Below, piece by piece: positions 9,118 to 44,911 of a stretch of 64,000 nucleotides of DNA. Location: the NCBI RefSeq assembly GCF_003790525.1, contig NZ_CP033635.1. The stretch is one strand, 5' to 3'. The notes below the pieces were generated by a model. That model was not told the DNA's origin. It saw nothing but the letters and a program-made list of their open reading frames with translations, and ran no database searches. Positions within the stretch are counted from its first letter, which is position 1; each line of letters begins with the position of its first letter. A program made the position numbers and the translations under genes. Source of the stretch: Escherichia coli. Lineage in GTDB: Bacteria > Pseudomonadota > Gammaproteobacteria > Enterobacterales > Enterobacteriaceae.

Positions 9118-9151
9118 CATTCCGCAAAGTAATAAAGACTGGAAGCCACCT

Positions 9152-10081: not shown

Positions 10082-10089
10082 GTCGCTCT

Positions 10090-10215
10090 GTGCGCGCTTT
10101 TCCCCTCCCCCTAACCCTCTCCCCAAAGGGGCGAGGGAACCGATCGAGCACGGTGTTAAAATCGGCGCTGGTTTTCTCCCTCTCCCTGTGGGAGAGGGTC
10201 GGGGTGAGGGCATCA
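10090..10215. repeat. GC-rich imperfect-palindrome repeat (boxC-like: ccctctcccc...gggagaggg)
   Basis: Related copies at 21405-21455 and 31840-31885. Confidence 0.5.
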
Positions 10216-10259
10216 GCACGCATATTCATCACATTCACCCATTAACTCACCCAAACACC

Positions 10260-12704
10260 ATGCCAACACCAACCATTATCAAAACACTCGCCACCCAGCG
10301 CGAAAAACCGTCCGTCAGCGTCATCACGCCAACCTGGAACCGCAGCGCATTCCTGCCGTACCTGCTTTATATGTACCGCTATCAGGACTACCCGGCAGAC
10401 CGCCGCGAACTCATCATCCTCGACGATTCCCCTCAAAGCCATCAACACATCATCGACCGCCTGACCAATGGCACACCGGAAGCCTTCAACATCCGCTACA
10501 TCCATCACCCGGAAAAACTGCCGCTGGGCAAAAAACGCAATATGCTCAACGAACTGGCGCGCGGCGAATACATCCTCTGCATGGACGATGACGACTACTA
10601 CCCGGCAGATAAAATCTCTTACACCATCGCTATGATGCAAAAAAACCGGGCGCTCATCTCCGGTTCCGACCAGATCCCCATCTGGTACAGCCACATCAAT
10701 CGCATCTTTCAAAGCCGCAGCTTCGGCCCGCATAACATCCTCAACGGCACCTTTTGCTATCACCGTAACTACCTGAAAAAGCACCGCTACGATGACGATT
10801 GCAATTTAGGCGAAGAGAAAAGTTTCACCGACAATTTCAGCGTTAACCCGCTACAACTGCCCGGCGAGCGCACGATTTTGTGTATCTCGCACAGCCACAA
10901 CACCTTTGATAAAGACTTTATTCTCGGGGCCAGCACGCCAGTAAACGCGACGCTTACGGATATCGTCCGCGATCCGCTGCTCCGCAATGCTTATCTGAGT
11001 CTGCATAACGCCACTCATCATCAGGCGATCCAGTATCAGGCGATCGATCAGATCGTTCTGCTGAATCTGGATAAACGCCCGGATCGCTTACAGCAGATCC
11101 GTGAAGAACTCACATTGCTGCATATTCCTCCTGAGAAGATCACCCGCCTTGCCGCCAGTGAAAATGAAAACGGTCAACGGGGCCGCCAGCAATCACACTT
11201 GCAGGCACTGCGTCTGGCGCAACAACGCGGCTGGCAAAACTACCTGCTGCTGGAAGATGACGCGGTTATTCTCAAACAGGAGAAACATATTCAGGTGCTG
11301 AACGCGCTGCTGGCGAGCCTGGCGAAAATTCCCTGGCAGGTGATGATCCTCGGCGGCGAAATTTCGCAGGGAACGATGCTAAAAAGTTTGCCTGGGCTGG
11401 TGCACGCGCGGGACTGCCGCAAAGTGTGCGCTTATCTGGTGAACCGCCGCTACTACCCGCAGCTGGCGCAGCAGATGAACAACGATGAGCATTCGCTGGA
11501 AGACGGCTGGCAGCCGCTGCTGCGCACCGACAAATGGCTGGCCTGTTACCCGAGCCTTTGTTATCAGCGACCGGGCTTTAGTGATATCGAGAAAAAAGCG
11601 ACTGATAACATTAACCACTACTTCAATAAGTTACCCGTAGCCACCAAGCCATCTACATTACCTATCGCCGATACCATCGGCTTTTTTATGGAAACCTCAT
11701 TCCACTACGCGCTCTACCGCCCAATCATCACCGCCCTGCAGGCGCAGGGGCAGAGCTGTACGCTGGTGATCAATGACCGCGTATTTAAACCATTTCTGGA
11801 TGAAATGCTGGCGACGCTAAAAAGCATCGACGATCCGCAGCTCAAAGGAATGCGCTTATCTGAAATGCAGGCACACGGTCAGCGAGTAAAATGCCTGGTC
11901 AGCCCCTATCACACGCCTGTGCTCAGTGGCCTTTCCCCCCTGAACATTCGCGCCATGTACGGCTTAGCCAAAGAAACGTGGAACCACGCCGACTGGAACC
12001 GTTTTTATCAGCGCATTTTGTGTTACAGCCACTACAGCCAGCGGGCGCTGGCACATTTCGGCAGCGCAATAGTGGTCGGCAACCCGCGCTTCGACGCCTG
12101 GCATAACGCCACGTTCGACCGCGCGTTGCCGGAAAATATCAAACTGGACGAGCGTAAACCCACCGTACTCTACGCCCCAACGTTTGGCGCATTAAGCTCC
12201 CTGCCCCACTGGGCAGAAAAATTGGGGCGCTTAAGCGATGATGTGAACCTGATTTGCAAACTGCACCACGGCACCTGCTCGCGCCCGGAAGAAGCTGCAT
12301 CGCTGGCCCTGGCTCGCAGGCATTTAAAACAGCGCACCGACTCCGCCCGTCACACGCTGGCGCTGCTGGCAAAGGCCGATTACGTGCTGACCGATAACAG
12401 CGGCTTTATTTTCGATGCTATTCACGTTGATAAGCGGGTGATCCTGCTCGACTTTCCGGGCATGGCAACGTTGCTCGACGGTGAGAAAAGTTACTCCACG
12501 CCCGAAAGCGCCGACCAGCGAATCCGCGAAATATTGCCGGTGGCTCATGATGTTGCGGAACTGCGTTATTTGTTGTCAGAGGCGTTTGACTGGGGTGCGG
12601 TGCAGGCGCGGCTTACGAAGATTCGTCATCACTATTGCGATGCGTTTATGGATGGCAAGGCGGGAGAACGGGCAGCGATGGTGATTGTGGAGGCACTAGG
12701 GTAA
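10260..12704 (+). CDS. Multidomain transferase: N-terminal GT2 glycosyltransferase, central GT25-like domain, C-terminal TagB/TagF-like CDP-glycerol glycerophosphotransferase domain
   Basis: N-terminal VSVITPTWNR...ILDDSP...MDDDDYY (GT-A/DxD); central LNLDKRPDRL (GT25-like); C-terminal VLYAPTFG...KLHHG...VLTDNSGFIFD (Glyphos_transf-like). ATG at 10260. Confidence 0.7.
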   Translation: MPTPTIIKTLATQREKPSVSVITPTWNRSAFLPYLLYMYRYQDYPADRRELIILDDSPQSHQHIIDRLTNGTPEAFNIRYIHHPEKLPLGKKRNMLNELARGEYILCMDDDDYYPADKISYTIAMMQKNRALISGSDQIPIWYSHINRIFQSRSFGPHNILNGTFCYHRNYLKKHRYDDDCNLGEEKSFTDNFSVNPLQLPGERTILCISHSHNTFDKDFILGASTPVNATLTDIVRDPLLRNAYLSLHNATHHQAIQYQAIDQIVLLNLDKRPDRLQQIREELTLLHIPPEKITRLAASENENGQRGRQQSHLQALRLAQQRGWQNYLLLEDDAVILKQEKHIQVLNALLASLAKIPWQVMILGGEISQGTMLKSLPGLVHARDCRKVCAYLVNRRYYPQLAQQMNNDEHSLEDGWQPLLRTDKWLACYPSLCYQRPGFSDIEKKATDNINHYFNKLPVATKPSTLPIADTIGFFMETSFHYALYRPIITALQAQGQSCTLVINDRVFKPFLDEMLATLKSIDDPQLKGMRLSEMQAHGQRVKCLVSPYHTPVLSGLSPLNIRAMYGLAKETWNHADWNRFYQRILCYSHYSQRALAHFGSAIVVGNPRFDAWHNATFDRALPENIKLDERKPTVLYAPTFGALSSLPHWAEKLGRLSDDVNLICKLHHGTCSRPEEAASLALARRHLKQRTDSARHTLALLAKADYVLTDNSGFIFDAIHVDKRVILLDFPGMATLLDGEKSYSTPESADQRIREILPVAHDVAELRYLLSEAFDWGAVQARLTKIRHHYCDAFMDGKAGERAAMVIVEALG

Positions 12705-12714
12705 AACGCGCAAG

Positions 12715-12830
12715 TGCCTGATGCGCTTCGCTTATCAGGCCTACGCGACCTTGCAATGTATTGAATTTGTAAGGATTTGTAGGCCGGTTAAGGCGTTTAC
12801 GCCGCATCCGGAACGAACAACGCACTTAAC
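12715..12830. repeat. REP/BIME elements
   Basis: gcctgatgcgcttcgcttatcaggcctac ... gccggttaaggcgtttacgccgcatccgg. Confidence 0.8.
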
Positions 12831-13029
12831 TACCCTCTGATTTCAAACTCATCGCTTTATGACTGGTGAATCGGTAAAAGTCGTAGATTGTGGGGGAGCG
12901 ATCTTTATGAATTCTGAAAAAACCTGAATCTTGCTAAACATATTGCTTATCATAAATATAGGTTACACACTATAACAATTATTGCGTAATTTAACATTTT
13001 GTTAAAATTGATAGGGCATAAACGATAAC

Positions 13030-13851
13030 ATGACTTATGATAAAAAAGTAACTTCCGGTACAACAAGCCAGAAACAAAACAACATTGTCACTCAAAAAAT
13101 ATCTCGCCCAAAGGAATTGTTTCTATTATTTTGGGTTGATGAGTCCGGTGATAGCCGACGTTCTATTTTTGAAGAAGCATGTCTGACGCGTTATTTCAAC
13201 ATCCTTTACTCCCCCGAGTATAAAAAAGAAACACAGATAGTTTACCATTTATCAATTAACACATTTAATCAAATCAAAGAAATATTAGAAATCTTTATAA
13301 ACAAGAATGGAGGTATAACCAAAGCAAAAGTTAAAGAAGTCAGTTTATTCTCACATGGGGGGCCAATTCATGGTCCTACAACCTCAGACTCTGTAAATAC
13401 ACCTTCCGTGCCTAAATACCCACAACAAATGGACATAATCGGAGGATGGGATTCAATTGATTTTAACTGGTCAAATAACGCTATGTTTGTTATGTATGGT
13501 TGTCGCACTAGTTATGCAAGTGATGATTCAGGACAAGGTTTTGCCAGTAAATTATCCCTATTAGATAATTTTAAGGACGTTAATGTCTGGGGACAAACAG
13601 AAAGTACTTATCCATCTTATTTCCCAGATATTAGGACAACTTCGATTATGAGGTCAATAAATATAGGTTGGTCTTTTTCACCAACATACATGGTTGCCAG
13701 TTCTGAAGGTCAAGGATGGGATGCCTTATTTCCGGATGATAAAAATCCACTAAAGTCTCTCCCTATGCAGTGTTATAATAATGGGAAATTGATTTTAACC
13801 TGCGATCAAAGCAGTTTTAATGATCACCGGAAGAATAAATCAAATGATTAG
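13030..13851 (+). CDS. Hypothetical protein, strongly AT-rich gene; possible alpha/beta-hydrolase-like fold (tentative)
   Basis: 273 aa; AT-rich codon usage unlike neighbours; motifs LFLLFWVDESGDS, VSLFSHGGP, MYGCRTSYASDDSG, C-terminal DH; own AT-rich upstream region. Confidence 0.55.
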   Translation: MTYDKKVTSGTTSQKQNNIVTQKISRPKELFLLFWVDESGDSRRSIFEEACLTRYFNILYSPEYKKETQIVYHLSINTFNQIKEILEIFINKNGGITKAKVKEVSLFSHGGPIHGPTTSDSVNTPSVPKYPQQMDIIGGWDSIDFNWSNNAMFVMYGCRTSYASDDSGQGFASKLSLLDNFKDVNVWGQTESTYPSYFPDIRTTSIMRSINIGWSFSPTYMVASSEGQGWDALFPDDKNPLKSLPMQCYNNGKLILTCDQSSFNDHRKNKSND

Positions 13852-14383
13852 TATTATATTGAGAAGCTTGATTCTATTATTCATGATAATAGTGTATCCA
13901 GATTATAATAAAAACCTACCTGCCTTTGAAGTATATGGGGAAAATGACATACTTAAGGATATGGTTATTAATATGAAAACTTATAGTAACCATAGTAAGA
14001 AAAACTCTTCCCCAACAACTATAGTGCAAACCATCCTTTTTAAAGGGAATATACAGCAAGTTTTTGAAAGCAACGATATGGGTGCAGAGAGCTTCTTTTT
14101 TTCTTATAATAACAAGGTTGAAACGCTGGTAACAGACGCTTTCTTTTTGAATAGAAAATTAGACAAACTGCATGATGCAAATATTTTTGAAGTTATAAAG
14201 CATGGGGAAAATATCGTTATTAGATATTACAAATGCAAAATTGAATATATGAAAAAAGAAAAATCTATCGAAATAGAGATATCAACAAACAAAAACAGTT
14301 ATTTTAGCAAAAATGGAATAAAACAAAAAGACACAAATAAATATAACACATATTTCTTCAATTACTTTGAGGCTCAAAAATAA
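13844..14383 (+). CDS. Hypothetical membrane-anchored or secreted protein, AT-rich; partner of upstream gene (ATG at 13844; start overlaps upstream stop)
   Basis: N-terminal hydrophobic segment MISIILRSLILLFMIIVY; Lys/Asn-rich; ATGATTAG start/stop overlap. Confidence 0.5.
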   Translation: MISIILRSLILLFMIIVYPDYNKNLPAFEVYGENDILKDMVINMKTYSNHSKKNSSPTTIVQTILFKGNIQQVFESNDMGAESFFFSYNNKVETLVTDAFFLNRKLDKLHDANIFEVIKHGENIVIRYYKCKIEYMKKEKSIEIEISTNKNSYFSKNGIKQKDTNKYNTYFFNYFEAQK

Positions 14384-14394
14384 ATTTTATTTTG

Positions 14395-14790
14395 TCATGC
14401 TTTCCCCCTAATCACCTCAATAATCCCCGTCGTCGACACCGACGGCGTGCGGGGGAAATACACTACCTCACAAATATACGCGAAGCTGTCAAACTTTCCT
14501 GCCCAGTCATCGCCCATCACTAAAATATCCGCACTGTACCCCCGCAGATACTCCGCTTTCTGCTCCAGCGACTCTTCCAGAAATACGCCATCCACGCACG
14601 CCAGCCCGGCGATGATCGCCATGCGGTCATCCTGAGGGTAAACCGGTGCCCTGCCCTTTTTGGCGATGTTCAGGGCATCGGACGATACGCCGACCAGCAG
14701 CCGTTCGCCCAGCGTGCGGGCGCGTTGTAAAAGGCGCAGATGACCGACATGAAACACATCGAAGGTGCCGAAGGTGATGACCGTTTTCAT
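14395..14790 (-). CDS. Cytidylyltransferase, glycerol-3-phosphate cytidylyltransferase (TagD)-like
   Basis: 131 aa; ITFGTFDVFHVGH (HxGH nucleotidyltransferase motif); start 2 nt after lfiJ stop (TAGCCATG). Confidence 0.8.
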   Translation of the reverse strand: MKTVITFGTFDVFHVGHLRLLQRARTLGERLLVGVSSDALNIAKKGRAPVYPQDDRMAIIAGLACVDGVFLEESLEQKAEYLRGYSADILVMGDDWAGKFDSFAYICEVVYFPRTPSVSTTGIIEVIRGKA

Positions 14791-14792
14791 GG

Positions 14793-15227
14793 CTACTCCG
14801 CTAACTTATGCCGCAGCCAGCACTGGACGGCGATGTCATCCACCGCTTTTTGCGCTTTCGCCGTGGCACTTTCTTGCTGCTCGCGGCGTTTGTCGTCCAA
14901 CGTCAGGGCCACCACTTTCTCTTCGCACGCCGCCGCCGTCAGGTTTTTCTGCATTCGCGTGGCTTTGATGTTAGCCAGCGTTTTTTCCTGCTCCTGCCAG
15001 GCGATCACCTTGCGCAAGGTGCCTTTGTAGTCGCTGACGTTTTTCAGCGATTCCACCGACGCTGCCGCGCCCGCAGATGTTTTCTCCACCAGGTAGCCTA
15101 ATGCTTTGATATTGTTGTCATAACCCGCACAAATCTGTTTTTGCTTTGCCAGCTCGACGGTTTTGTCTTTGACCGATTTATCCCGCAGGCGCTGCAACTG
15201 CGCCAGGGTGTCGATGATTTGTCGCAT
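14793..15227 (-). CDS. lfiJ: Flagellar export protein FliJ
   Basis: 144 aa, charged coiled-coil-like protein directly downstream of fliI. Confidence 0.75.
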   Translation of the reverse strand: MRQIIDTLAQLQRLRDKSVKDKTVELAKQKQICAGYDNNIKALGYLVEKTSAGAAASVESLKNVSDYKGTLRKVIAWQEQEKTLANIKATRMQKNLTAAACEEKVVALTLDDKRREQQESATAKAQKAVDDIAVQCWLRHKLAE

Positions 15228-15229
15228 GG

Positions 15230-16567
15230 TTACTGTTCTGCCTTTTTGACGCCAGGAAAGAGAATTTGCAGGCGGCTTTGCACCAGTTCGAGGGAGGCGG
15301 GTTCGCGCATCTCCTGGCGCAAAAAACGCTCGATAGCCGGGAACATTTTCACCGCTTTGTCGACGCTGGCGTCCGCGCCTGCCACATAACCGCCGAGTGG
15401 GATCAGCGGTTTGATCTCCATGTAGGCGGCGTAGTTTTGCTTTAACGCGCGGGCGGATTGCTGATGTTCCAGGCTGGTGACCTGGTTCATGCAGCGGCTG
15501 ATCGACTGGCCGATATCAATGGCCGGATAATGCCCCGCTTCCGCCAGTTTGCGGGTTAATACGATATGCCCGTCCAGCACCGCACGGGCGCAGTCGACAA
15601 TCGGATCTTGCTGGTCGTCGCCTTCCGCCAGCACGGTGTAGATGGCAGTCATCGATCCCGCGCTTTCGCTGTTGCCTGCGCTTTCGACCAGTTTGGGGAT
15701 CATGCCGAATGCCGACGGCGGATAGCCTTTGGTGGCGGGTGGTTCGCCAAGCGAGAGCGCAATTTCACGCTGCGCCATCGCATAGCGGGTCAGGGAATCC
15801 ACCAGCAGTAAAACGTGATGCCCGCGGTCGCGAAACCAGGCGGCGACGGAGTGGCACAGTTCGGTGGCTTTCAGGCGCATCAGCGGCGATTCATCGGCGG
15901 GCGCGACGACGACGATAGACTTCGCCAGCCCGTCCGCGCCCAGTGAGTGGTCGATAAACTCTTTCACTTCGCGCCCGCGTTCGCCAATCAGCCCGACCAC
16001 CACGATGTCGGCTTTGGTCTGGCGGGTGATCATCCCCAGCAGCACGCTTTTCCCGACGCCGCTGCCCGCCATCAGCCCGACACGCTGGCCTTTGCCGATG
16101 GTCAGCAGGCCGTTGATCGCTTTCACGCCCACGTCCAGCGGTTCGTCCACCGAACGGCGGGTTAAGGGATTAACCGACGGCGGCAGCGGCGGCAGAAGGT
16201 CGTTGCCGTTCAGGCGGCCTTTGCCATCCAGCGGTTCGCCGAGGCCGTTAACCACGCGGCCTAACCAGCTTTCGCCAATCAGGATGTCGTGGGCTTTTTC
16301 TTCCGGGAAGACGCGCGCCCCCGCCATCAGGCCGACCGGCTGTTTAAACGGCATTAAGTAAGTGATATCGCGATTAAAGCCTACGGCCTGCGCGTCGATA
16401 AGCGTGTGGTTGGCGCTTTCGATGCGACACAGCTGCCCGGTCATTAGCGGGCAGCCGACGCTCTCCAGCAGGATGCCATTAAGGCGCACCAGCCGCCCGG
16501 CGACGCGGGCCAGCGGGATCGACTCCAGCGAGCGCAGGGCGTTATCGAAAGCGGAAAAATCACTCAC
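15230..16567 (-). CDS. lfiI: Flagellum-specific ATP synthase FliI
   Basis: 445 aa; Walker A GSGVGKS; FliI/T3SS ATPase family. Confidence 0.95.
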   Translation of the reverse strand: MSDFSAFDNALRSLESIPLARVAGRLVRLNGILLESVGCPLMTGQLCRIESANHTLIDAQAVGFNRDITYLMPFKQPVGLMAGARVFPEEKAHDILIGESWLGRVVNGLGEPLDGKGRLNGNDLLPPLPPSVNPLTRRSVDEPLDVGVKAINGLLTIGKGQRVGLMAGSGVGKSVLLGMITRQTKADIVVVGLIGERGREVKEFIDHSLGADGLAKSIVVVAPADESPLMRLKATELCHSVAAWFRDRGHHVLLLVDSLTRYAMAQREIALSLGEPPATKGYPPSAFGMIPKLVESAGNSESAGSMTAIYTVLAEGDDQQDPIVDCARAVLDGHIVLTRKLAEAGHYPAIDIGQSISRCMNQVTSLEHQQSARALKQNYAAYMEIKPLIPLGGYVAGADASVDKAVKMFPAIERFLRQEMREPASLELVQSRLQILFPGVKKAEQ

Positions 16568-17270
16568 CCTGTGACTCCGGCGTTAGCGTCTCTTGTAGCG
16601 CGGTCATGCATTGTTCCAGGCGGTGCTCGCAGCCGATATCCAGTTCGGATTTATCGGTGATCACCCGGCATTCACCCGGCGGCAGATCCGGCGAAGGCGT
16701 CAGCCCCCATTCGCTGACCTTTTCCGGCACCGCGTCGCGCAAGCGGTTAAATTCTTCCGTACTTAGCATCACTTGGAGGGTCTCCGGCATTGCCGGGAAG
16801 GCCGCCAGTGCCTCTTCCACCAGCGCCAGCAACTGCGTCGGTTGCAGCGCCAGTTCGCAGCGGATCACCTGGCGGGTGACTTTTTCCACCAGTTGCAGCA
16901 AATCTTCCCGCTGTTTGCGTTCGATATGGGCGAGAAAGTCGTTCACTTTTCCGCTGATGGCTTCCAGCGGCTGTGCCGCGTCAACAAACTGTTTGCGCCC
17001 TTCCTGCTGCCCGGCGAGGCTGCCTTCGGTGTAGCCCTGGCGTCGCCCCTCGGCAAAACCTTGTTGATGACCTTCGCTAAAGCCCTGCTCCTGGCCTTCG
17101 GTCATTCCCTGAGCAAACCCTTTTTGCAGCCCTTCCTGAAAACCGTCCATCAACTGGCGCTGGTAATCGGCGGCGCTAATGCTGGCGGTGAGCGGTTCTC
17201 CGGTCACCGCACGCTGGCGCGGCGGAAAACGGTGCAGGCGATAGCGCCCGCGCAGTGTTTCAATGGTCAT
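16560..17270 (-). CDS. lfiH: Flagellar assembly protein FliH
   Basis: 236 aa; FliH-like; overlaps lfiI start. Confidence 0.8.
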   Translation of the reverse strand: MTIETLRGRYRLHRFPPRQRAVTGEPLTASISAADYQRQLMDGFQEGLQKGFAQGMTEGQEQGFSEGHQQGFAEGRRQGYTEGSLAGQQEGRKQFVDAAQPLEAISGKVNDFLAHIERKQREDLLQLVEKVTRQVIRCELALQPTQLLALVEEALAAFPAMPETLQVMLSTEEFNRLRDAVPEKVSEWGLTPSPDLPPGECRVITDKSELDIGCEHRLEQCMTALQETLTPESQGE

Positions 17271-17272
17271 GG

Positions 17273-18283
17273 TTACTCCGCCGTCTGTTCCGCAAAGAGC
17301 TGTAGCTGAATTTCGCCCGCCTCTTCCAGTTCACGGGCAATGCCCATGATTTCGCGGCGGATCTGTTCGATACGGCTGACCGGCACCGGCCCCAGACGCG
17401 CGGTGATCGCTTCCAGTTGCTGCGCCTGACGTTTTGGCATCACCGCGTAAATGGAACGGCGCAACAGGGCTTCGGTGCCTTTCAGCGCTACCGCCCAGTC
17501 TTCCATCGGTACTTCGTCGAGCAGACGTCGACGCACCTCTTCGTTCTGGCGGCTGAGGATAAAGAAGTCGTACATCTCATCCTGAAGCTGCTCCAGCACG
17601 TCTTCGTCGCGCTCGCGCATCTGGTCGAGGATCACCTGCTGGTTGCCCTGGAAGCGGTTGACGATATCCGCCGCCTGTTTGATGCCTTTCACCTTCGAGC
17701 CGTGCTCCGAAAGCACCGACAGGCCGCGTTCAATCAGCCTGTCCAGTTCATCCACCACGTCGCGGTTGACGTCGTTGAGTTTCGCCACCCGATAGAGAAT
17801 TTCGTTTTGCACCGATTCATTGAGATACGAGAGCACCGCCGCCGAGATTTCCGGCGTCAGAAACGCGAGGAATACTGCCTGCAATTGCAGATGCTCTTCG
17901 GAGATCAGCATCGCCAGCTGGCGCGGTTCCACCCATTGCAGTCGCGCCATCCGCGAGCGGATCTCATCGCCGTAGATGCCGTTGATCACGCTGCTGGCGA
18001 TCTCGGTGCCTAGCGCTTTGTTGAGAATGCCCTGCAACATAGATCGCGACGCGCCATTGATCCCGCTCTGTTCGCGGAACTCATCAAAGAAGTTGTTGAT
18101 CACTTTGCGCGCCATGCTGGTTTTGACACCGGAAAGCCGCGCCATGTTTTCGCTCAGGCGCACCACTTCTTCGCGGCTGAGTTTTTGCATCACCGTCGCC
18201 GCCGCTTCTTCGCCAAGGCACAGTAGCAGGATCGCCGCCTGTTCCAGGTAGCTGTTGCTCTTATTTGTTGTCAATTCGCTCAT
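17273..18283 (-). CDS. lfiG: Flagellar motor switch protein FliG
   Basis: 336 aa; FliG family. Confidence 0.92.
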   Translation of the reverse strand: MSELTTNKSNSYLEQAAILLLCLGEEAAATVMQKLSREEVVRLSENMARLSGVKTSMARKVINNFFDEFREQSGINGASRSMLQGILNKALGTEIASSVINGIYGDEIRSRMARLQWVEPRQLAMLISEEHLQLQAVFLAFLTPEISAAVLSYLNESVQNEILYRVAKLNDVNRDVVDELDRLIERGLSVLSEHGSKVKGIKQAADIVNRFQGNQQVILDQMRERDEDVLEQLQDEMYDFFILSRQNEEVRRRLLDEVPMEDWAVALKGTEALLRRSIYAVMPKRQAQQLEAITARLGPVPVSRIEQIRREIMGIARELEEAGEIQLQLFAEQTAE

Positions 18284-19907
18284 TGCTGGTGATCCATTGT
18301 CTGAGAACTTCGGCTACGCGATCGGTGTCGCTCATGGCCAGTTTTTGCAGGAACTCGAGTTTTACTTCGAGGCCGGAACTCTGGGACGGCAGGCTGTCAT
18401 CGCCGGGCAGCGACGGCAGATCGACGTTTTTGCGTTCCTCTTCCGGCATGGCAATCCACGGTTCGCTGACAGCTTCCGGTTCTGGTGTGATAACCGGCGC
18501 ACGTACCGCCGTCAGCCGTTTCATTACCGGGCGCACCACAAAGAACAGCAACAACAGCGCCAGCAGGCCGCAGCCAATCAGCCGCACCCAGGCCAGCACG
18601 CTGTCGTCTTTCCACAGCGGAATAATTGGTTCGACCGGCACCGCCTGCGGCACAAAGTTAAGCAGCGATAAGGTGAGATTGTCACCGCGCTGGACGTCGA
18701 TCCCGGCGGCATTGTTCAGCAACGCGGTCAGTTGCGTGGTCTGCTCCGGCTTCCAGTTTTTCAGCGCCGGAGCGTTTTGATTGAGCACCACCGCCACGTT
18801 AAGGCGTTTCACCGCAAAGCCGGGATGCTGAATATGCTGGACGCTGCGGTCGTAAGAGTAATCGCGCTTGCTTTCGCTGTGTTTCGAAAGGGCTTCCGGC
18901 GAGCGGTTTTCTTCCGTACCGTTGGTCATCTGATTCGCTGCAATCGGCGGACGGTTACTGAGCGAACCGGGCACACCCATCGCCACCTGATTGGTATCGC
19001 TGTCCAGCACGTTTTCTTCGCGGTTGATTTTCGGCGCGTCGCCGTAGTGTTCCTGAGTTTCATCGATATTACTGAGGTCGAGATCCGGCATGACGCTGAC
19101 GCGGTAATTCCCGCTGCCGACCAGCGAATCCAGCACGTTCGCCACGCTGGCGCGGGTTTTGTCCTGAATATCTTTGAGGATCTGATCGCGTTTACGGGTA
19201 GCGGCTGAAACCGCTTCGCCCGCGCCAATGCCGTCGGTCAGCAGATTTCCCGCCTGATCGACGACGCTAACTTTGCTGGCGTGCAGCCCCGGAATGCTGC
19301 CGGAAACCAGATGCACAATGGCGTTCACCTGGTCCATATTCAGCTTCGCGCCGTAATGCAGACGCACCACCACCGAGGCGCTGTTTTGCGGCTCATCGCT
19401 GACCACAAACGAGCTCTCTTCGTTGAGCGCCAGATGCACCCGCGCGCTCTCCACCGCGTCCAGCGACATAATGCTCTGCGCCAGCTCCCCTTCGAGGCTG
19501 CGTTTGTAGCGCACGTTCTGCACGAACTGGCTGCTGCCGAGCACTTCGTCTTTGTCCATCAGCTCGTAGCCGCTGGGCAAGATCGCCTGCACGCCTTTCG
19601 CGGCAAGGGTCATACGCGTTTTCGACAGTTCATCTTCCGGCACCAGAATCTGCCCGCTTTGCGGGTCGATGCGGTAGCTGAGCTTTTCGCCGTCCAGCAC
19701 GGTGACAATCTGCGACACGGGCAGATTTTCCTGGCGTCCGTAGAGCGAGACGTAGCCGCGATTACCGGTCCACAGTACGCTGACGATAATTGCCGTCGCC
19801 GCAACGGCAAGCCCCACTCCCGCCATCAATGCCCAGCGTTTGTTATCTGCAAGACGCAGTCGAAACGCCGGAAACGCCTGGGTTAACTTCTTTATTTGTG
19901 CATTCAT
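18261..19907 (-). CDS. lfiF: Flagellar MS-ring protein FliF
   Basis: 548 aa; N-terminal TM segment; FliF-like. Confidence 0.92.
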   Translation of the reverse strand: MNAQIKKLTQAFPAFRLRLADNKRWALMAGVGLAVAATAIIVSVLWTGNRGYVSLYGRQENLPVSQIVTVLDGEKLSYRIDPQSGQILVPEDELSKTRMTLAAKGVQAILPSGYELMDKDEVLGSSQFVQNVRYKRSLEGELAQSIMSLDAVESARVHLALNEESSFVVSDEPQNSASVVVRLHYGAKLNMDQVNAIVHLVSGSIPGLHASKVSVVDQAGNLLTDGIGAGEAVSAATRKRDQILKDIQDKTRASVANVLDSLVGSGNYRVSVMPDLDLSNIDETQEHYGDAPKINREENVLDSDTNQVAMGVPGSLSNRPPIAANQMTNGTEENRSPEALSKHSESKRDYSYDRSVQHIQHPGFAVKRLNVAVVLNQNAPALKNWKPEQTTQLTALLNNAAGIDVQRGDNLTLSLLNFVPQAVPVEPIIPLWKDDSVLAWVRLIGCGLLALLLLFFVVRPVMKRLTAVRAPVITPEPEAVSEPWIAMPEEERKNVDLPSLPGDDSLPSQSSGLEVKLEFLQKLAMSDTDRVAEVLRQWITSNERIDNK

Positions 19908-19911
19908 AGGG

Positions 19912-20253
19912 TTAGATCGACATACTCATCAGATCGTTAAATCCGGTGGCGATTTTGTTGCGCACCTGCACCAGCGCGGAGAAAGAGAGCGACGCCTGCT
20001 GGCTGGCGATCATCGCCCCGGCGAGGTCATCACTTTTGCCCGTGTCGACAGCCGTTTGCTGCTGCTCCGCCACCTGCTGGAACTGGTCAACGTGACCGAG
20101 CGCGCCGGACATAATACGGTTAAACGACACGTCCGGGTCGGTGGAACTGAAGGTCATGGCGGGTAGCACTGGCGCCTGGGCGTTGGCCTGCATCCGCTGC
20201 ACGTCCTGCATAATTTGCGCCTGCATGGTGCTGTTGATTGTGGTAATGCTCAT
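19912..20253 (-). CDS. lfiE: Flagellar hook-basal body protein FliE
   Basis: 113 aa; FliE-like C-terminus. Confidence 0.85.
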   Translation of the reverse strand: MSITTINSTMQAQIMQDVQRMQANAQAPVLPAMTFSSTDPDVSFNRIMSGALGHVDQFQQVAEQQQTAVDTGKSDDLAGAMIASQQASLSFSALVQVRNKIATGFNDLMSMSI

Positions 20254-20267
20254 TTTTAACTTCCGGG

Positions 20268-21254
20268 TCAGGAGAAAACTTCGATACCGTGCTTGCGCAT
20301 GGAGGCCAGTCGATAGCGCAGTGCGCGCGGGGTAATGCCTAACAGGTCAGCGATTTTGCTGCGGTTGCCCTGATATTTACGCATCAGGTCGGCGATATAT
20401 TGATACTGCGCGCTTCGTCCGTGCTGGCCTAAATCGCCGGTTTCGGCAATGTGGACGGCGGGCTGAACAGGCCATTGCAGTTCACTGTGGTCAGCAATAT
20501 CGGTGTCCGGCAGGCCTAATGCATCCGGGTAAATTACGCCGTCGCGATTTAAAATCATTCCCCGCTGAATGGCGTTTTCCAGTTGGCGAACGTTACCGGG
20601 CCAACGGTAATTGAGCAGCGCACGGCGGGTGGATTCGGACAGGGTGATATTTTTCACCAGCACCGTGGAGTATTTTTTAATAAATGACTCTGCCAGCGGA
20701 ATAATATCGTTCAGACGTTCACGCAGCGGCGGCATGGTAATAGGAATCACCGCCAGACGATAATAGAGATCTTCACGAAAACGTCCGGCGGCAACTTCCT
20801 GCTCCAGGTTTTTATTGGTGCAGGCAATCAGGCGAAAATTGAGTTTGATTTGTCGGTTGCTGCCTAATCGCTCAACCTGTTGTTCCTGCAACACGCGTAA
20901 TATTTTGGCCTGTAGCGCCAGCGGCATTTCACCAATTTCATCGAGCAATAAGGAGCCGTTATTTGCCAGTTCCATTTTTCCTGGCACGCTGGCAATTGCG
21001 CCGGTAAATGCGCCTTTGTCGTAGCCAAATAACGTCGATTCCAGCATATTTTCCGGGATCGCCGCGCAGTTCACGCCGATATAGGGCGCATTATCATTTT
21101 CACCAAAGGCTACGGTGTGAATATATTTCGCCACGCACTCTTTCCCCGCGCCGGTTTCGCCCTGAATGAGCACCGGCACGTTAAAGGCGGCGACACGCTT
21201 TGCCAGAGTAAAAGCGTTAATGCTGGAAGCGGCAGTTGCAATAAGTTCAGACAT
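20268..21254 (-). CDS. lafK: Sigma-54-dependent transcriptional activator (LafK-type): AAA+ domain plus C-terminal HTH, no N-terminal regulatory domain
   Basis: 328 aa; GETGAGKE Walker A; sigma-54 interaction domain; C-terminal Fis-type HTH. Confidence 0.88.
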   Translation of the reverse strand: MSELIATAASSINAFTLAKRVAAFNVPVLIQGETGAGKECVAKYIHTVAFGENDNAPYIGVNCAAIPENMLESTLFGYDKGAFTGAIASVPGKMELANNGSLLLDEIGEMPLALQAKILRVLQEQQVERLGSNRQIKLNFRLIACTNKNLEQEVAAGRFREDLYYRLAVIPITMPPLRERLNDIIPLAESFIKKYSTVLVKNITLSESTRRALLNYRWPGNVRQLENAIQRGMILNRDGVIYPDALGLPDTDIADHSELQWPVQPAVHIAETGDLGQHGRSAQYQYIADLMRKYQGNRSKIADLLGITPRALRYRLASMRKHGIEVFS

Positions 21255-21404
21255 AGGGTGAACAATATAAGTAGCGACAATAATCAGGATGTTCTGAAGC
21301 GTATCACCGGCGGGATTAACAAGTTCGAATTAAACGATAATAAAAACATTATTTGATGGTAAACAATTAGTTAGATATTAATACTGTTAATTTGGACATC
21401 TGTG

Positions 21405-21455
21405 ATGCCCCCTCACCCTAACCCTCTCCCCGGATGGGGCGAGGGGACAGACCGC
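21405..21455. repeat. GC-rich boxC-like repeat in the lafK / lfiM divergent intergenic region
   Basis: gccccctcaccctaaccctctccccggatggggcgaggggac. Confidence 0.5.
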
Positions 21456-21626
21456 AGACTGATTGGCGAAAATCACTCCCATTAAGCAATTAATCGATTA
21501 ATTATTTTTTCACCCTATTAATAATTTGCCCCTTTCACTCCCCCTCTATTTAATACCTCACCTTGTGTCACAGCCGGATTTGCGTGCACAGAAACACCCA
21601 TACCATTACAGCAGAGAAAGTAAGCC

Positions 21627-22478
21627 ATGCTGAAGTACAGTAAAACGCCAGGCATCTTTAAATTAGAAGGTAATCGGCTCGGACGCCCCTACCATCGCCT
21701 GCCGACCCTGTTTACGGGGAATTTTGACGTGATTGATTCGCATCTTGGCAGCTACTTTCTCAAAAAGCATCGCAGCAATATCACCTTAAAAAAGATTGGC
21801 TGCGAAATGGATATTATTAATAAAAACGCCGAACTGATGGTTTCCCAGGTCGGGCATCTGGCGTTTGATATTGATCGCTCCTTATTGTTAATGCTGCTGG
21901 GCAATTTTTATGGTCTGGAGTCCTCTCTTGAAGAGGCGAAAGCGCATAACGGGCTGCCGACCAAAACCGAAACTCGTTTAAAAAACCGACTCGCGCTGGA
22001 TATCTGCACGCTGATATTTAATCTGCAAACCTCCGGTATTGCGCTGAAATTAAAACTGGACAGCAGCACGGTGATTACCCACTGGGCGTATCAATTAACC
22101 TTTACCCTTGCGGGCGATGAAGAGAGCAGTTTCCGTATTTTGCTCGACGACGCCCACACCGATTTTATTTTGAATCTGATCCGCCACAGCGAGCACAGTA
22201 AACCGCAGCAGGTGGCGAAATCCGTTAATAAACCGGCCCTGATTAAAGAAATCATCCGCTCCCTGCCGCTGACCCTGAACGTCAAAATCGCCGAGCTATC
22301 GATGAATGTCGCCGATCTGGCGCAGATAAAAGCCGGGGATATTTTACCCATCTCGCTGGGAGAAACGTTCCCGGTGGCGATTGGGCAATCTGAATTATTT
22401 AGCGCCCTGATTGTGGAAGACAAAGACAAACTGTTTTTGTCGGAGCTGGCGGGCAAGAATGAGAATAGCCATGAGTAA
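21627..22478 (+). CDS. lfiM: Flagellar motor switch protein FliM
   Basis: 283 aa; FliM family by position and sequence. Confidence 0.8.
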   Translation: MLKYSKTPGIFKLEGNRLGRPYHRLPTLFTGNFDVIDSHLGSYFLKKHRSNITLKKIGCEMDIINKNAELMVSQVGHLAFDIDRSLLLMLLGNFYGLESSLEEAKAHNGLPTKTETRLKNRLALDICTLIFNLQTSGIALKLKLDSSTVITHWAYQLTFTLAGDEESSFRILLDDAHTDFILNLIRHSEHSKPQQVAKSVNKPALIKEIIRSLPLTLNVKIAELSMNVADLAQIKAGDILPISLGETFPVAIGQSELFSALIVEDKDKLFLSELAGKNENSHE

Positions 22479-23591: not shown

Positions 23592-23593
23592 TT

Positions 23594-23866
23594 ATGTTGA
23601 CCGTAGACGTAGCCGCCGACATTGTCGCCAGTGGCATAAAAGTGGTGATTTTGCTGGTTTCGGTGCTGGTGGTGCCAAGCCTGCTGGTCGGCCTGCTGGT
23701 GAGCGTGTTCCAGGCGGTGACGCAGATTAACGAACAGACCCTGAGCTTTTTGCCGAGGCTGATTGTCACGCTGGTGGTGCTGGGGGTGTGCGGCAAATGG
23801 ATGATTATCCAGTTGCATGATCTCTGCATTCATCTGTTTAGTCAGGCCGCCCTGCTGGTGCATTAA
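23594..23866 (+). CDS. lfiQ: Flagellar biosynthesis protein FliQ
   Basis: 90 aa; two TM helices; FliQ-like. Confidence 0.9.
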   Translation: MLTVDVAADIVASGIKVVILLVSVLVVPSLLVGLLVSVFQAVTQINEQTLSFLPRLIVTLVVLGVCGKWMIIQLHDLCIHLFSQAALLVH

Positions 23867-23867
23867 G

Positions 23868-27856: not shown

Positions 27857-27869
27857 GTATCCGGCATCT

Positions 27870-27960
27870 GCGCACAACCGCCGGATGCGGCGTGAACGCC
27901 TTATCCGGCCTACCGTTCAGGCACGATTCGTAGGCTAAGCGTAAGCGCATCCGGCATCGG
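27870..27960. repeat. REP elements flanking rayT
   Basis: gccggatgcggcgtgaacgccttatccggcctac and a second REP-like palindrome. Confidence 0.85.
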
Positions 27961-27967
27961 CGCGCAA

Positions 27968-28465
27968 TTATACAATGATACGCTCCCCGGCACTAAAATC
28001 CGTTACGTCCCCCGCCCAATCGATGGGATATAACCCCTTCGCGACATCGCGATGAAACGTTGAGAATGGCCAATCACTCACTTGCTTTACCCAGCCATGT
28101 TTTACTGGATTTATATAAATATAATCAACATGATGGCGATAGTCTTTGGTATTGCGGATGGCGTGCTCCCAAAAACGCGGTTGCCAGATATTTTGCAATC
28201 CACAAGCATGGGTGAACTGTTTTTTAATCTCCCGCCAGCGAGAGGAAAAATCATCATCGCTTTCGGGTAATGTCCAGATACAGTGCATATGCTCCGGCAA
28301 AACTACCCAGGCGTTAATTTCAAAAGGTCTGGCTCGCTTAACGTTAATAATGACTTTACGGAGCATCTGGAACTGAGCGGTCAGAAGATGGCTTCGACGA
28401 TTTCGTAGGTTAACCGTGAAAAACCAGGTTCCCCCTTTGATGTAATAACGACGATATTCAGACAT
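27968..28465 (-). CDS. rayT: REP-associated tyrosine transposase RayT (YafM), IS200/IS605 TnpA-like
   Basis: 165 aa; matches the RayT/YafM sequence as recalled; flanked by REPs. Confidence 0.9.
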   Translation of the reverse strand: MSEYRRYYIKGGTWFFTVNLRNRRSHLLTAQFQMLRKVIINVKRARPFEINAWVVLPEHMHCIWTLPESDDDFSSRWREIKKQFTHACGLQNIWQPRFWEHAIRNTKDYRHHVDYIYINPVKHGWVKQVSDWPFSTFHRDVAKGLYPIDWAGDVTDFSAGERIIV

Positions 28466-28549
28466 GGCGACTCCTTTTTCTCAACGGTAAGAAGAAAAGG
28501 AAAGGTCGGCAATGAGGTGATGGAATAACGGGAAAGCGGCTCGCATAAA

Positions 28550-28640
28550 CGCACAGATTTGTAGGCATGATAAGACGCGCCAGCGTCGCATCAGGCATCG
28601 GTGCACAATTGCCGAATCCGGCGTGAACGCCCTCTCCGTC
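28550..28640. repeat. REP pair (BIME) flanking rayT
   Basis: gtaggcatgataagacgcgccagcgtcgcatcaggc ... gccgaatccggcgtgaacgccctctccgtcctac. Confidence 0.85.
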
Positions 28641-29390
28641 CTACAAAATCGTCTCTTCCGTCAAAATCCGCCGCGCGCCTAAAAAATGATCCTGCCAGAA
28701 AGGTTCAGCTAACCGGCTTATCCGAATGGTTTCGCCGGTACGTGGTGACTCGATAAACTGACCGTCTCCCAGATACACCCCCATATGATCGGCTATCTCG
28801 CGGCTGTGAATATGGAAAAACAGCAAATCTCCCCGGCGCAGGTCGTTGTTCGCCACAATCGTTGCCCGATGGTAGTGATACATCTCATTGGCTGTGCGCG
28901 GGAGCTTCGCCTCAAGGATCTTGTTGTAGGCATAAAAAACCAACCCGCTACAGTCGAAGCCTTTATCGGGCCGCGTGCCGCCCCAGACATAAGGCTTGCC
29001 AAGCTGCTGCTCCAGGCGGTGAATCGCCACTTCGGTGATGTTGTGTAGATGGTCGCTGCTTAAGAAATGGTTGTTCTCCGCCAGCGCCTGCCAGCGTCTG
29101 TCACTCGCCTTGAGCGGCGCAGGAAACCATTCTGGATGCTGTTTTATCTGTTCGCGGTTGTGCTGGCGCAGCGCCTTTCTGCTTTCGGCATTGCCTTCCA
29201 CAATATAGCCGGCCTGCTTTTTCAGATGAGTTTGGTACTGTTTTAATAAACGCGCACGGTTTTGCATCCGCTGGCGGGCGGCGTAGCTGAAAGAGATATG
29301 TGATGTGGTGGCGCTGGCAAATGAAGAAAACGGCAAGCAAAGCAACAATAATCCCGACAACACAAAAGAGGGAATCGACGGCAAGGACAT
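28641..29390 (-). CDS. yafL: NlpC/P60-family lipoprotein peptidase YafL (ATG at 29390)
   Basis: NlpC/P60 catalytic region (DCSGLV...H...H); matches YafL as recalled. Confidence 0.88.
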   Translation of the reverse strand: MSLPSIPSFVLSGLLLLCLPFSSFASATTSHISFSYAARQRMQNRARLLKQYQTHLKKQAGYIVEGNAESRKALRQHNREQIKQHPEWFPAPLKASDRRWQALAENNHFLSSDHLHNITEVAIHRLEQQLGKPYVWGGTRPDKGFDCSGLVFYAYNKILEAKLPRTANEMYHYHRATIVANNDLRRGDLLFFHIHSREIADHMGVYLGDGQFIESPRTGETIRISRLAEPFWQDHFLGARRILTEETIL

Positions 29391-29567
29391 ACTCAATAAT
29401 GGCTGGTCATGCATTGATGTTGCAGTGTATCCCGGCCCGTACCTGAACAAACTTAATAAACCATTATTATAAAATTAATAAATATATTTCAGTTAATTAT
29501 GTAAAAACATCCGTTTATTAAATTACTCATGGATTGTCGCTGTTGCTCATTTGAGCTACAATTCAAG

Positions 29568-29583
29568 CTGAATAAATATACAG
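29568..29583 (+). promoter_or_regulatory. LexA box (CTG-N10-CAG) in the dinJ promoter
   Basis: ctgaataaatatacag located 17 nt upstream of the dinJ ATG. Confidence 0.7.
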
Positions 29584-29599
29584 CACAGGAGATATCCCA

Positions 29600-29860
29600 A
29601 TGGCTGCTAACGCGTTTGTTCGCGCCCGAATCGATGAAGATCTGAAGAATCAGGCGGCGGACGTACTGGCCGGGATGGGGCTGACCATCTCTGACCTGGT
29701 TCGCATAACCCTCACAAAGGTCGCGCGTGAAAAGGCATTGCCGTTTGATTTACGCGAGCCTAATCAATTAACTATTCAATCAATCAAAAACAGCGAAGCT
29801 GGCGTTGGTATTCATAAGGCCAAAGACGCCGATGATTTATTTGATAAATTAGGAATTTAA
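29600..29860 (+). CDS. dinJ: Antitoxin DinJ
   Basis: 86 aa; matches DinJ as recalled. Confidence 0.93.
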   Translation: MAANAFVRARIDEDLKNQAADVLAGMGLTISDLVRITLTKVAREKALPFDLREPNQLTIQSIKNSEAGVGIHKAKDADDLFDKLGI

Positions 29861-29862
29861 AT

Positions 29863-30140
29863 ATGATTCAAAGGGATATTGAATACTCGGGACAATTTTC
29901 AAAGGATGTAAAACTTGCACAAAAGCGTCATAAGGATATGAATAAATTGAAATATCTTATGACGCTCTTATCAATAATACTTTACTGCTTCCAGCTGTTT
30001 ATAAAGACCACCCGCTGCAAGGTTCATGGAAAGGTTATCGCGATGCTCATGTCGAACCGGACTGGATCCTGATTTACAAACTTACCGATAAACTTTTACG
30101 ATTTGAGAGAACTGGAACTCACGCGGCGCTATTTGGGTAA
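29863..30140 (+). pseudogene. yafQ: yafQ toxin gene disrupted by a frameshift (apparent 1-nt deletion near codon 36-37)
   Basis: N-terminal frame encodes MIQRDIEYSGQFSKDVKLAQKRHKDMNKLKYLMTLL then diverges and stops at 30072; another frame from about 29970 encodes INNTLLLPAVYKDHPLQGSWKGYRDAHVEPDWILIYKLTDKLLRFERTGTHAALFG and stops at 30140. Confidence 0.8.
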
Positions 30141-30295
30141 AGCCCGCTGCCGATGAAATTTGTAAACCCTGCGCCGACAGGCTTGCGTAAAACTCTTTTG
30201 GTGATAATGTGAGCCTTCCAAATCCAGACTATTCCGATTTGGGATCCATTTTGCCGTCCTGGCGTGTGTAACCGTTTTATCAAGGAATAAGCAGT

Positions 30296-31036
30296 ATGCG
30301 TAAAATCGCATTAATTCTTGCGATGTTGTTGATCCCGTGCGTTTCGTTTGCCGGTTTGCTGGGCAGCAGTAGCTCGACCACGCCAGTGAGCAAAGAGTAT
30401 AAGCAGCAGTTGATGGGATCCCCTGTCTACATCCAGATCTTCAAGGAAGAACGTACGCTCGATCTCTACGTCAAAATGGGCGAGCAATATCAACTGCTCG
30501 ACAGCTATAAAATCTGTAAATATTCCGGCGGCTTAGGGCCAAAACAGCGTCAGGGCGATTTCAAAAGCCCGGAAGGGTTTTATAGCGTCCAGCGTAATCA
30601 GTTAAAACCAGACAGCCGTTACTACAAAGCGATTAATATTGGATTCCCAAACGCCTATGACCGTGCGCATGGTTATGAAGGGAAATACCTGATGATTCAC
30701 GGCGATTGTGTTTCCATCGGCTGCTACGCGATGACCAATCAGGGTATTGATGAGATCTTCCAGTTCGTTACTGGTGCGCTGGTGTTTGGTCAGCCGAGCG
30801 TGCAAGTGAGTATTTACCCGTTCCGTATGACCGACGCCAATATGAAGCGCCATAAATATTCCAACTTTAAGGACTTCTGGGAGCAACTGAAGCCAGGCTA
30901 CGACTACTTTGAGCAAACCCGTAAGCCACCGACCGTTTCTGTGGTCAATGGCCGTTACGTGGTCAGCAAGCCGTTAAGCCACGAAGTTGTGCAGCCACAA
31001 CTGGCATCAAACTACACGCTCCCCGAGGCAAAATAA
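30296..31036 (+). CDS. yafK: L,D-transpeptidase-family periplasmic protein YafK
   Basis: 246 aa; signal peptide; YkuD/L,D-transpeptidase-like core (HGDCVSIGC). Confidence 0.9.
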
Positions 31037-31774
31037 GCGCCATTCACCTGGCATAATCTTTTGCCAGGTTTCATTGCCCGTCAGCGGCTGTGTCGCAATC
31101 ACCGTGACCACATCATTCGGTGTGGTCTGCGAGCTGAAGTCGATTTCCACATCCTGATCCAGCAACGTTGCCACGCCAAACGGCGCGCGGCGGGTGATCC
31201 AGTGTAAATTAGTCGAGCAATACGCCATTACATAGCGCCCGTCAGAAAGCAGCATGTTGAAAACGCCCTTCTGCCGCAGTTCATCCGCCAGTGAGGCGAT
31301 ATATTTAAACACTGCCGCCATGTTGCCCGGTGTGCGCGGGTAACGCTGCGTTAATTTATGCAGGAGCCAGCAAAAGGCTTTTTCGCTATCGGTTTCACCG
31401 ACCGGGCGGAAGTTGCCGGTTTCCAGTGATTTGTAGCCCGTCAGTTGTCCATTATGGGCATAAGTCCAGTTACGCCCCCATAACTCGCGGGTAAACGGGT
31501 GAGTATTTTCCAGCGCCACCTCGCCCCGATTAGCCTGGCGAATATGAGCCACCACCGAACAGGATTTTATCGGGTAGTCCTGGACAAGTTTGGCGATGGG
31601 GGAATTAAAGCTGGGTTGCGGATCTTTAAATGTGCGACAGCCTTTACCTTCGTAAAAGGTAATGCCCCAGCCATCTTTATGTGGCCCGGTTCCACCACCA
31701 CGCTGTACAAGTCCGGTGAAACTAAAGCAGATATCGGTAGGGACGTTGGCGCTCATCCCGAGCAATTCGCACAT
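31007..31774 (-). CDS. yafJ: Class II glutamine amidotransferase-like protein YafJ (ATG at 31774 giving MCELLG N-terminus)
   Basis: N-terminal Met-Cys typical of Ntn-type GATase; convergently overlaps the yafK 3' end. Confidence 0.88.
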
Positions 31775-31839
31775 GGGTAACCTCCACAACAGCGGGAGCG
31801 CATGGCCCCCGGCGAAGATTGATTAAAAAGTACAAAGGT

Positions 31840-31885
31840 TCAGGCTGTTACCCTCACCCCGGCCCTCTCCCTGAAAGGGAGAAAA
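31840..31885. repeat. GC-rich boxC-like repeat
   Basis: gttaccctcaccccggccctctccctgaaagggagaaaagacc. Confidence 0.45.
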
Positions 31886-31889
31886 GACC

Positions 31890-36682: not shown

Positions 36683-36690
36683 CTGAATAT

Positions 36691-44910: not shown

Positions 44911-44911
44911 G

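Follow-up and report, generated by a model that had tools for sequence, protein, structure and literature searches.

BoxC is a repeat of Escherichia coli that was reported in the 1990s; Hoyne et al. (2000) came upon it again and called it the potential intrastrand triplex (PIT) element, and it was later renamed TMECO (PMC4666352, citing Hoyne et al. 2000 and 2002); the three names designate one and the same repeat (Holder et al. 2015, PMC4666352). This work concerns sequences of that kind in a 64,000-nt stretch of an E. coli genome (RefSeq assembly GCF_003790525.1, contig NZ_CP033635.1), referred to below as the window and numbered from its first letter. At three sites in or near the Flag-2 lateral-flagella locus (window 1 to approximately 27,900, according to the RefSeq annotation) there are, almost certainly, four BoxC copies, three of them intact and one decayed.

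In the published definition, a TMECO copy has the pattern CCCTCNCCC-N3-6-GGGNGAGGG-N3-GGGNGAGGG, with at most one mismatched stem pair, and its second loop sets the type, i.e., TTA for type A and CCG (also TCG) for type B. Close inverted pairs consist of one A and one B copy, which holds for all five pairs of strain MG1655, and the head-to-head arrangement is the rarer one (one of these five pairs, judged from the published coordinates). MG1655 has 23 copies, placed without orientation or distance preference relative to genes, and other strains have up to 30; most copies are found at the same loci across strains, and their neighbourhoods are far more variable than control intergenic regions (PMC4666352). 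The length quoted for BoxC is 56 bp. Published in vitro results comprise a stable triplex, with circular dichroism (CD) as well as nuclear magnetic resonance (NMR) evidence obtained on MG1655 oligonucleotides, and a block to DNA polymerase, while published assays detected neither promoter nor terminator activity and no effect on RNA polymerase.

The REP/BIME elements (PU) resemble BoxC in being short, GC-rich, imperfectly palindromic, strictly extragenic and multi-copy, often in inverted pairs. Their sequence (GCCGGATGCGGCG...) is however unrelated, REP forms a two-arm hairpin without a third block, and it has a partner transposase, RAYT. To our knowledge, there is no partner or cognate transposase for BoxC.

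Identification of four BoxC copies

The sequence-only reading of the window had proposed that three sites carry related sequences resembling boxC elements. The 9-mer CCCTCTCCC occurs five times in the 64-kb window, compared with 0.19 occurrences expected from shuffles; the repeat search placed all three sites in a single family (D11); and an explicit scan of the 64 kb for the three-block motif returned four loci and nothing else, with zero matches in 100 second-order Markov simulations, even when five mismatches were allowed. The 9-mer excess, the shared repeat family and the lack of simulated matches together demonstrate that the similarity is real and not an artefact of low complexity. The alignment of the copies gave the same answer, as blocks 2 and 3 (GGGAGAGGG ... 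GGG.GAGGG) are invariant in ten sequences, including copies from other E. coli loci, and the similarity therefore goes beyond a common GC content. The proposed relationship was thus confirmed, and so was the resemblance to boxC, since three of the four copies match the TMECO pattern exactly and are listed in Table S8 of PMC4666352. The three sites stood, with unit boundaries refined as given below, and the count was changed from three copies to four, as site 1 turned out to be an inverted A+B pair.

The core of each unit is built of three 9-nt blocks, i.e., CCCTCNCCC, a loop of 3-6 nt, GGGAGAGGG, a 3-nt loop and GGGTGAGGG, the whole unit having approximately 50-60 bp; family-level BLAST matches span 47-60 nt, in agreement with the 56 bp quoted for BoxC. 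In the alignment with other E. coli loci, type A copies have the second loop TTA and the 5' leader GCTCG.TC.GTC, whereas type B copies have the second loop CCG or TCG, the 5' leader GGTTTTCT and the 3' tail CATCAGCGCGC. These flanks are common to the copies at hrpB-mrcB, gabT-gabP and ybdD-cstA.

Site 1 is a composite (10089-10224, plus strand) of two head-to-head copies separated by a 40-nt spacer. Copy 1a, of type A, spans 10092-10152 on the minus strand; its core (10102-10137) reads CCCTCGCCC CTTTG GGGAGAGGG TTA GGGGGAGGG G, with an exact TMECO match at 10103-10137, and its 5' leader GTGCTCGATCGGTT recurs in type A copies elsewhere in E. coli. Copy 1b, of type B, spans 10169-10228 on the plus strand, the same interval that is covered by the family BLAST matches; its core (10178-10211) reads CCCTCTCCC TGT GGGAGAGGG TCG GGGTGAGGG C, with an exact TMECO match at 10178-10210. 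This copy is identical to MG1655 entry 20, and both its 5' leader GGTTTTCT and its 3' tail CATCAGCACGCA are common to other type B copies. With A on the minus and B on the plus strand, the pair obeys the published A+B pairing rule. The repeat search recovered it as inverted arms of 49 nt (10091-10139 and 10174-10222, 71% complementary).

Site 2 is a single type A copy (21402-21457, minus strand), whose core (21409-21445) reads CCCTCGCCC CATCCG GGGAGAGGG TTA GGGTGAGGG G, with an exact TMECO match at 21410-21445; the family matches extend over 56 nt of the query. Site 3 (31846-31890, minus strand) is a decayed type B copy with the core (31851-31885) TTTTCTCCC TTTCA GGGAGAGGG CCG GGGTGAGGG T. It is uncatalogued and fails the strict TMECO pattern by three mismatches, all within block 1. 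In strain MEI003, the same slot with identical flanks holds an intact type B copy, CCCTCTCCC TTTCA GGGAGAGGG CCG GGGTGAGGG, compared with which the SMS-3-5 sequence has lost one of two direct GGGAGA units (6 nt) and with it three of the nine block 1 bases. Judged from this comparison of two strains, site 3 is a 6-nt deletion derivative of BoxC, the lesion having the form expected of replication slippage. The sequence-only reading had rightly counted this site in the family and had overlooked its decay. Inverted arms shared by copies 1b and site 3 were also recovered (10190-10217 and 31844-31871; 28 nt, 89%).

Window positions 9000-13000 show 100% identity to the minus strand of E. coli SMS-3-5 (NC_010498.1), where the record position equals 283042 minus the window position. 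Table S8 for NC_010498 lists sites 2, 1b and 1a with the same sequences and coordinates, as nos. 153 (261597-261633), 154 (272864-272831) and 155 (272905-272940), respectively (PMC4666352). The copies fit the family pattern and have relatives elsewhere in E. coli, and they agree with the described repeat in the three-block sequence, loop lengths, A/B second loops, inverted A+B pairing, strictly intergenic position and copy number. Nothing distinguishes the three intact copies from it, the only peculiarities being the decay of site 3 and the head-to-head arrangement of site 1. With BoxC on record since the 1990s and sites 1a, 1b and 2 catalogued in 2015, the finding is real but ordinary.

Predicted structure and regulatory signals

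As single-stranded DNA, the copies were predicted (ViennaRNA, which models hairpins only) to form hairpins of 7-13 bp with energies of -5.7 to -11.4 kcal/mol (z from -1.1 to -3.1), in which block 1 can pair with block 2 or with block 3. At site 3, the stem is reduced to 6-7 bp. Folding of the RNA, which the sequence-only reading had put forward as a check, gave a distinct result for the site 1 pair (10082-10260), predicted to form a single long hairpin (-80.2 kcal/mol, z = -6.2) that none of 200 shuffles equalled in stability.

Blocks 2 and 3 could be arranged by hand into G.G:C, A.A:T and T.A:T triplets, and in this model copy 1a would contain one additional imperfect triplet, because its block 3 is GGGGGAGGG. 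In these features BoxC resembles H-DNA, triplex and G-quadruplex motifs, with which it shares a purine-rich mirror repeat beside its complement, triplex formation and polymerase block in vitro, and local instability. It differs from them in being a dispersed family of fixed sequence with conserved flanks and not a generic homopurine tract, and in that no triplex was detected in vivo.

The promoter scan revealed no sigma-70-like promoter at any of the sites, and the terminator scan no GC hairpin followed by a T-run within any copy; nearby, the spacer of site 1 alone gave a terminator match, a weak stem of 7 bp at 10151-10170. No Rfam family matched the three sites at gathering score in a cmscan of the whole window, the 11 hits of which were rRNA, tRNA, StyR-44 and naRNA4.

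Among those hits, the rRNA genes belong to a complete operon on the minus strand (45043-50135; 16S, two spacer tRNAs, 23S, 5S), and the StyR-44 match (48164-48263) lies in the spacer upstream of the 23S rRNA gene. Two 91-nt repeats (36677-36767 and 44898-44988), 93% identical, each contain the same tRNA gene, with identical Rfam scores, and one of them sits just past the 5S rRNA of this operon.

Gene setting of the sites

All four copies are intergenic in the RefSeq annotation, as the sequence-only reading had stated. Site 1 lies between two co-directional genes, a hypothetical gene (9152-10081), annotated in other records as lysine-N-methylase, i.e., LafV, and a glycosyltransferase gene (10260-12704). 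This is within Flag-2 variable region 1 (VR1), defined by De Maayer et al. (2020), which bears out the earlier placement of one copy between variable-region genes. Site 2 lies in the middle of the region between divergent genes, encoding a sigma-54 activator (20268-21254, minus strand) and a FliM-like protein (21627-22478, plus strand). Beyond the Flag-2 locus the RefSeq gene order is rayT, yafL, dinJ-yafQ, dpaA, yafJ and lpcA (gmhA). Site 3 begins 5 nt past the stop of gmhA (31890) and upstream of yafJ (start at approximately 31774), both genes being on the minus strand. The yafQ gene (29863-30140), the toxin gene of the dinJ-yafQ pair, is annotated in SMS-3-5 as a frameshifted pseudogene. 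It is also worth mentioning that only seven TMECO copies are catalogued in SMS-3-5 and that three of these seven fall in the Flag-2 locus, within 11.3 kb (window 10102-21445).

The suspicion that copy 1b contains a spurious GTG start of the transferase open reading frame proved correct. The GTG at 10188 chosen by the ORF finder (838 aa) is located in loop 1/block 2 of copy 1b, while the RefSeq start is the ATG at 10260 (814 aa). Because in strains without the site 1 repeat the glycosyltransferase starts at the homologous ATG, the 24-codon (72-nt) N-terminal extension is an artefact, and its removal from the Flag-2 glycosyltransferase model is a practical correction.

True REP elements are also plentiful in the window, where families D2-D4 were mapped at 646-951, 3050-3091, 3898-3952, 12715-12811, 27859-27913, 28558-28647 and 57730-57850. 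A BIME array of three tandem REP units of approximately 117 nt (604-951) lies between the flgK-like and rod-binding genes of Flag-2, and Rfam naRNA4 (CssrE) matches two of these units (652-846), with another naRNA4 match at 28564-28641; the naRNA4 matches thus fall on REP arrays and not on the BoxC sites. The REP-associated tyrosine transposase gene rayT (27968-28465, minus strand) directly follows the last Flag-2 gene, flhA, and is accompanied by REP copies on both sides (27859-27913 and 28558-28647).

Strain variation of the BoxC slots

A total of 746 genomes have the site 1 pair, and another Flag-2 lineage that lacks it has the same two genes separated by an unrelated spacer of 46 nt. The BoxC allele of site 2 was found in at most 105 of 1,284 Flag-2 genomes, an upper bound that may include BIME alleles reaching approximately 80% query coverage; the actual number is probably 50-90, as estimated from the match ranking and from 52 records at ≥99% identity. 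The other Flag-2 genomes hold a two-REP BIME in the same central slot, with approximately 115 and 155 nt adjoining the respective start codons conserved around this exchangeable centre. The allele of site 3 is present in 329 of 5,426 genomes, and elsewhere the slot contains, between identical flanks, a single REP (O157-like strains, SB0258h1) or, in K-12, a BIME of three REPs. REP/BIME elements hold the slots of sites 2 and 3 in most strains. Across BoxC and REP/BIME alleles the flanks of these two sites are 96-99% identical, and the alleles themselves are unrelated in alignment, on which ground a REP/BIME identity of the BoxC copies was rejected.

A similar picture emerged at the loci outside the window. 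At gabT-gabP, 1,305 genomes have a BoxC pair where K-12 has a BIME; at hrpB-mrcB, the place of a BoxC pair is taken in Nissle by 12 nt of unrelated filler; and at ybdD-cstA there are partly deleted BoxC remnants. Presence, absence or replacement was hence observed at all six loci examined, and BoxC and REP/BIME occupy exactly the same slot at three of them, i.e., site 2 (21357-21512), site 3 (31815-31890) and gabT-gabP. BoxC insertions at BIME loci are said to have been reported by Bachellier et al. in 1997. The variability of the slots agrees with the published variability of TMECO neighbourhoods (PMC4666352).

BoxC copies share with miniature inverted-repeat transposable elements (MITEs) and other small repeats (ERIC/IRU, RUP, NEMIS) the small size, the non-coding and structured character, the multi-copy state and the presence/absence polymorphism. 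They differ from MITEs in having neither transposon-type terminal inverted repeats nor target-site duplications, as none was found at the filled versus empty junctions of site 1 and hrpB-mrcB. Only unrelated short filler occupies the empty sites there, and insertion in the manner of a MITE was rejected on this basis.

Distribution of BoxC in E. coli and beyond

The genome-wide search that the sequence-only reading had proposed was performed with a 65-nt query based on site 2, and all but one of the 5,426 complete E. coli genomes (5,425) gave matches, at 82,121 places in total, i.e., 2-28 places per genome (median 17), in keeping with the 23 copies of MG1655. Plasmids account for only 42 of these places, and the listed matches overlap no annotated feature. 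Among 50,697 phage records, three contained a match, two of them records of Campylobacter phages and the third a 2.5-kb fragment of an E. coli phage, and these may represent host DNA. The two Campylobacter phage records (MG065686.1 and MG065691.1, 174 kb) have three E. coli-type BoxC matches each, with a best identity of 93.5%; such matches are unexpected for that host and may come from contaminating or chimeric sequence.

In plasmid records, most matches come from the large secondary replicons of Azospirillum, Rhizobium and Sinorhizobium, and some enterobacterial plasmids also have matches. Azospirillum megaplasmids have 15-28 places each, one copy reading CCCTCTCCC CTCCG GGGAGAGGG TTA GGGTGAGGG. 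A pattern scan of one genome per species, which shows breadth among the matches listed and is not a taxonomic census, yielded at least dozens of copies, mainly in Mitsuaria chitosanitabida (loop GCTTGC, tail TCTTCGGGCT); copies in metagenome-assembled genomes (MAGs) of Methylomirabilota and Contendobacter were also among the matches listed. Inverted pairs are frequent among the copies in distant taxa.

Possible explanations for the behaviour of the copies

We propose, with moderate confidence, that the behaviour of these copies is explained by instability driven by their structure and not by a service to the cell. They would be non-coding, non-autonomous repeats in dispensable spacer slots, without a dedicated regulatory job at these loci. 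Blocks 1 and 2 would form a hairpin, and when the G-rich strand becomes single-stranded, block 3 could lie on block 2 to give a purine-motif intrastrand triplex. If the strand folds in this way while the DNA is replicated or repaired, pausing of the polymerase would become more likely, as would slippage deletions and replacement of the spacer; transcribed copies would add a stable hairpin to the RNA. The view of dispensable spacers is favoured by the conserved flanks and exchangeable centre of site 2, by the fact that the site 1 pair can be lost without gene loss and by the decay of site 3. In this proposal, family membership, anatomy, presence/absence/replacement, one slippage-type deletion and the predicted hairpins come from the present analysis, and the in vitro triplex and polymerase block, the missing promoter/terminator activity and the lack of an in vivo footprint are taken from the literature.

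Several points weigh against this proposal. In published work, in vivo dimethyl sulfate (DMS) footprinting did not detect the triplex, the double-stranded form being an ordinary duplex, and the triplex step in cells is thus hypothetical. The hairpins of single copies are only modestly better than those of shuffles. The link to variable regions is correlative, and the repeats may accumulate in spacers that were already free to vary. Finally, the 9-nt blocks are letter-identical in E. coli, Azospirillum, Mitsuaria, Contendobacter and the Methylomirabilota MAG, with loops and tails that are lineage-specific; to judge by the letters, such identity across phyla exceeds what a generic triplex or hairpin needs and hints at sequence-specific recognition.

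An alternative is that transcribed copies act at the RNA level, by stabilising mRNA, by serving as processing sites or by hindering translation, for instance through the -80 kcal/mol hairpin between the lafV-like and glycosyltransferase genes or through a 3' hairpin that would protect the gmhA mRNA in the way proposed for REP. REP/BIME elements are able to stabilise the mRNA upstream of them, and they occupy sites 2 and 3 in other strains; moreover, site 1 lies between co-directional genes and has a very stable predicted RNA fold, and site 3 begins immediately downstream (5 nt) of the gmhA stop. We nonetheless consider this explanation unlikely. The hairpin of site 3 has decayed to a stem of 6-7 bp, site 2 lies between divergent genes and need not be transcribed, and strains lacking the site 1 pair retain both genes around a 46-nt spacer. 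The published assays without terminator or promoter activity or an effect on RNA polymerase also speak against it, as do the MG1655 copies, which show no preferred orientation or distance with respect to genes (PMC4666352).

It is similarly doubtful that BoxC is a mobile or protein-targeted element, moved or copied by a recombinase or transposase in the manner of MITEs or of REP/RAYT, although this would account for the two subfamilies, the obligate A+B pairing, the slots shared with BIMEs and the wide taxonomic spread. The presence, absence or replacement at all six loci, with REP/BIME as the alternative at three, agrees with mobility, and so do the subfamily leaders and tails, conserved beyond the structural core, and the blocks conserved in Alpha-, Beta- and Gammaproteobacteria and a Methylomirabilota MAG, with at least dozens of Mitsuaria copies among the matches listed. 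Against it stand the junctions without target-site duplication or terminal inverted repeat and the near absence of BoxC from phages (3/50,697 records) and from E. coli plasmids (42/82,121 places). We know of no gene associated with BoxC. Most copies occupy the same loci across strains, which implies that movement is rare at best (PMC4666352). What keeps a mobile or protein-targeted BoxC under consideration is the block conservation across distant phyla and the alternation with REP/BIME in shared slots.

The same observations allow a further possibility, that BoxC is the recognition site of a sequence-specific protein (a recombinase, nuclease or nucleoid factor) or a copy-and-replace substrate shared with REP/BIME. 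To this we assign a low probability. The possibility is suggested by the block identity across taxa, the A/B leaders and tails with their pairing, and the sharing of slots, for which triplex potential alone is insufficient.

Folding of blocks 2 and 3 (GGGAGAGGGTTAGGGTGAGGG) into an intramolecular G-quadruplex instead of a triplex is very improbable. Their four G3 runs with 3-nt loops fit the canonical G3-N3-G3-N3-G3-N3-G3 motif, and the possibility was acknowledged by Holder et al. (PMC4666352). However, the NMR spectra of TMECO oligonucleotides contained 18 imino signals, as fits a triplex and not a G-quadruplex (PMC4666352), on which ground this reading was set aside; the conserved C-rich block 1 would, in addition, be left without a role.

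A chance resemblance of GC-rich sequence, or a mis-called REP/BIME or terminator, has practically no chance of being correct, being ruled out by the motif statistics and the agreement with the catalogue: the sequences are indeed C/G-rich and partly self-similar, and REP elements do abound in the window, but with the REP families mapped neither the REP consensus (GCCGGATGCGGCG...CCGGCCTAC) nor its hairpin (GCCGGATGCGGCG...CGCCTTATCCGGCCTAC) occurs at the three sites, the naRNA4 matches fall elsewhere and no T-run follows any copy.

Significance of the finding

As a discovery, the identification of these copies carries little weight. At the three sites in and near the Flag-2 locus, BoxC is best taken as a mark of strain-variable spacers and not of regulatory DNA, and site 3 shows in clear form how a slippage deletion looks within a BoxC element. 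The alternation with REP/BIME and the conservation of the blocks across phyla are the most useful leads on the function and spread of this family.

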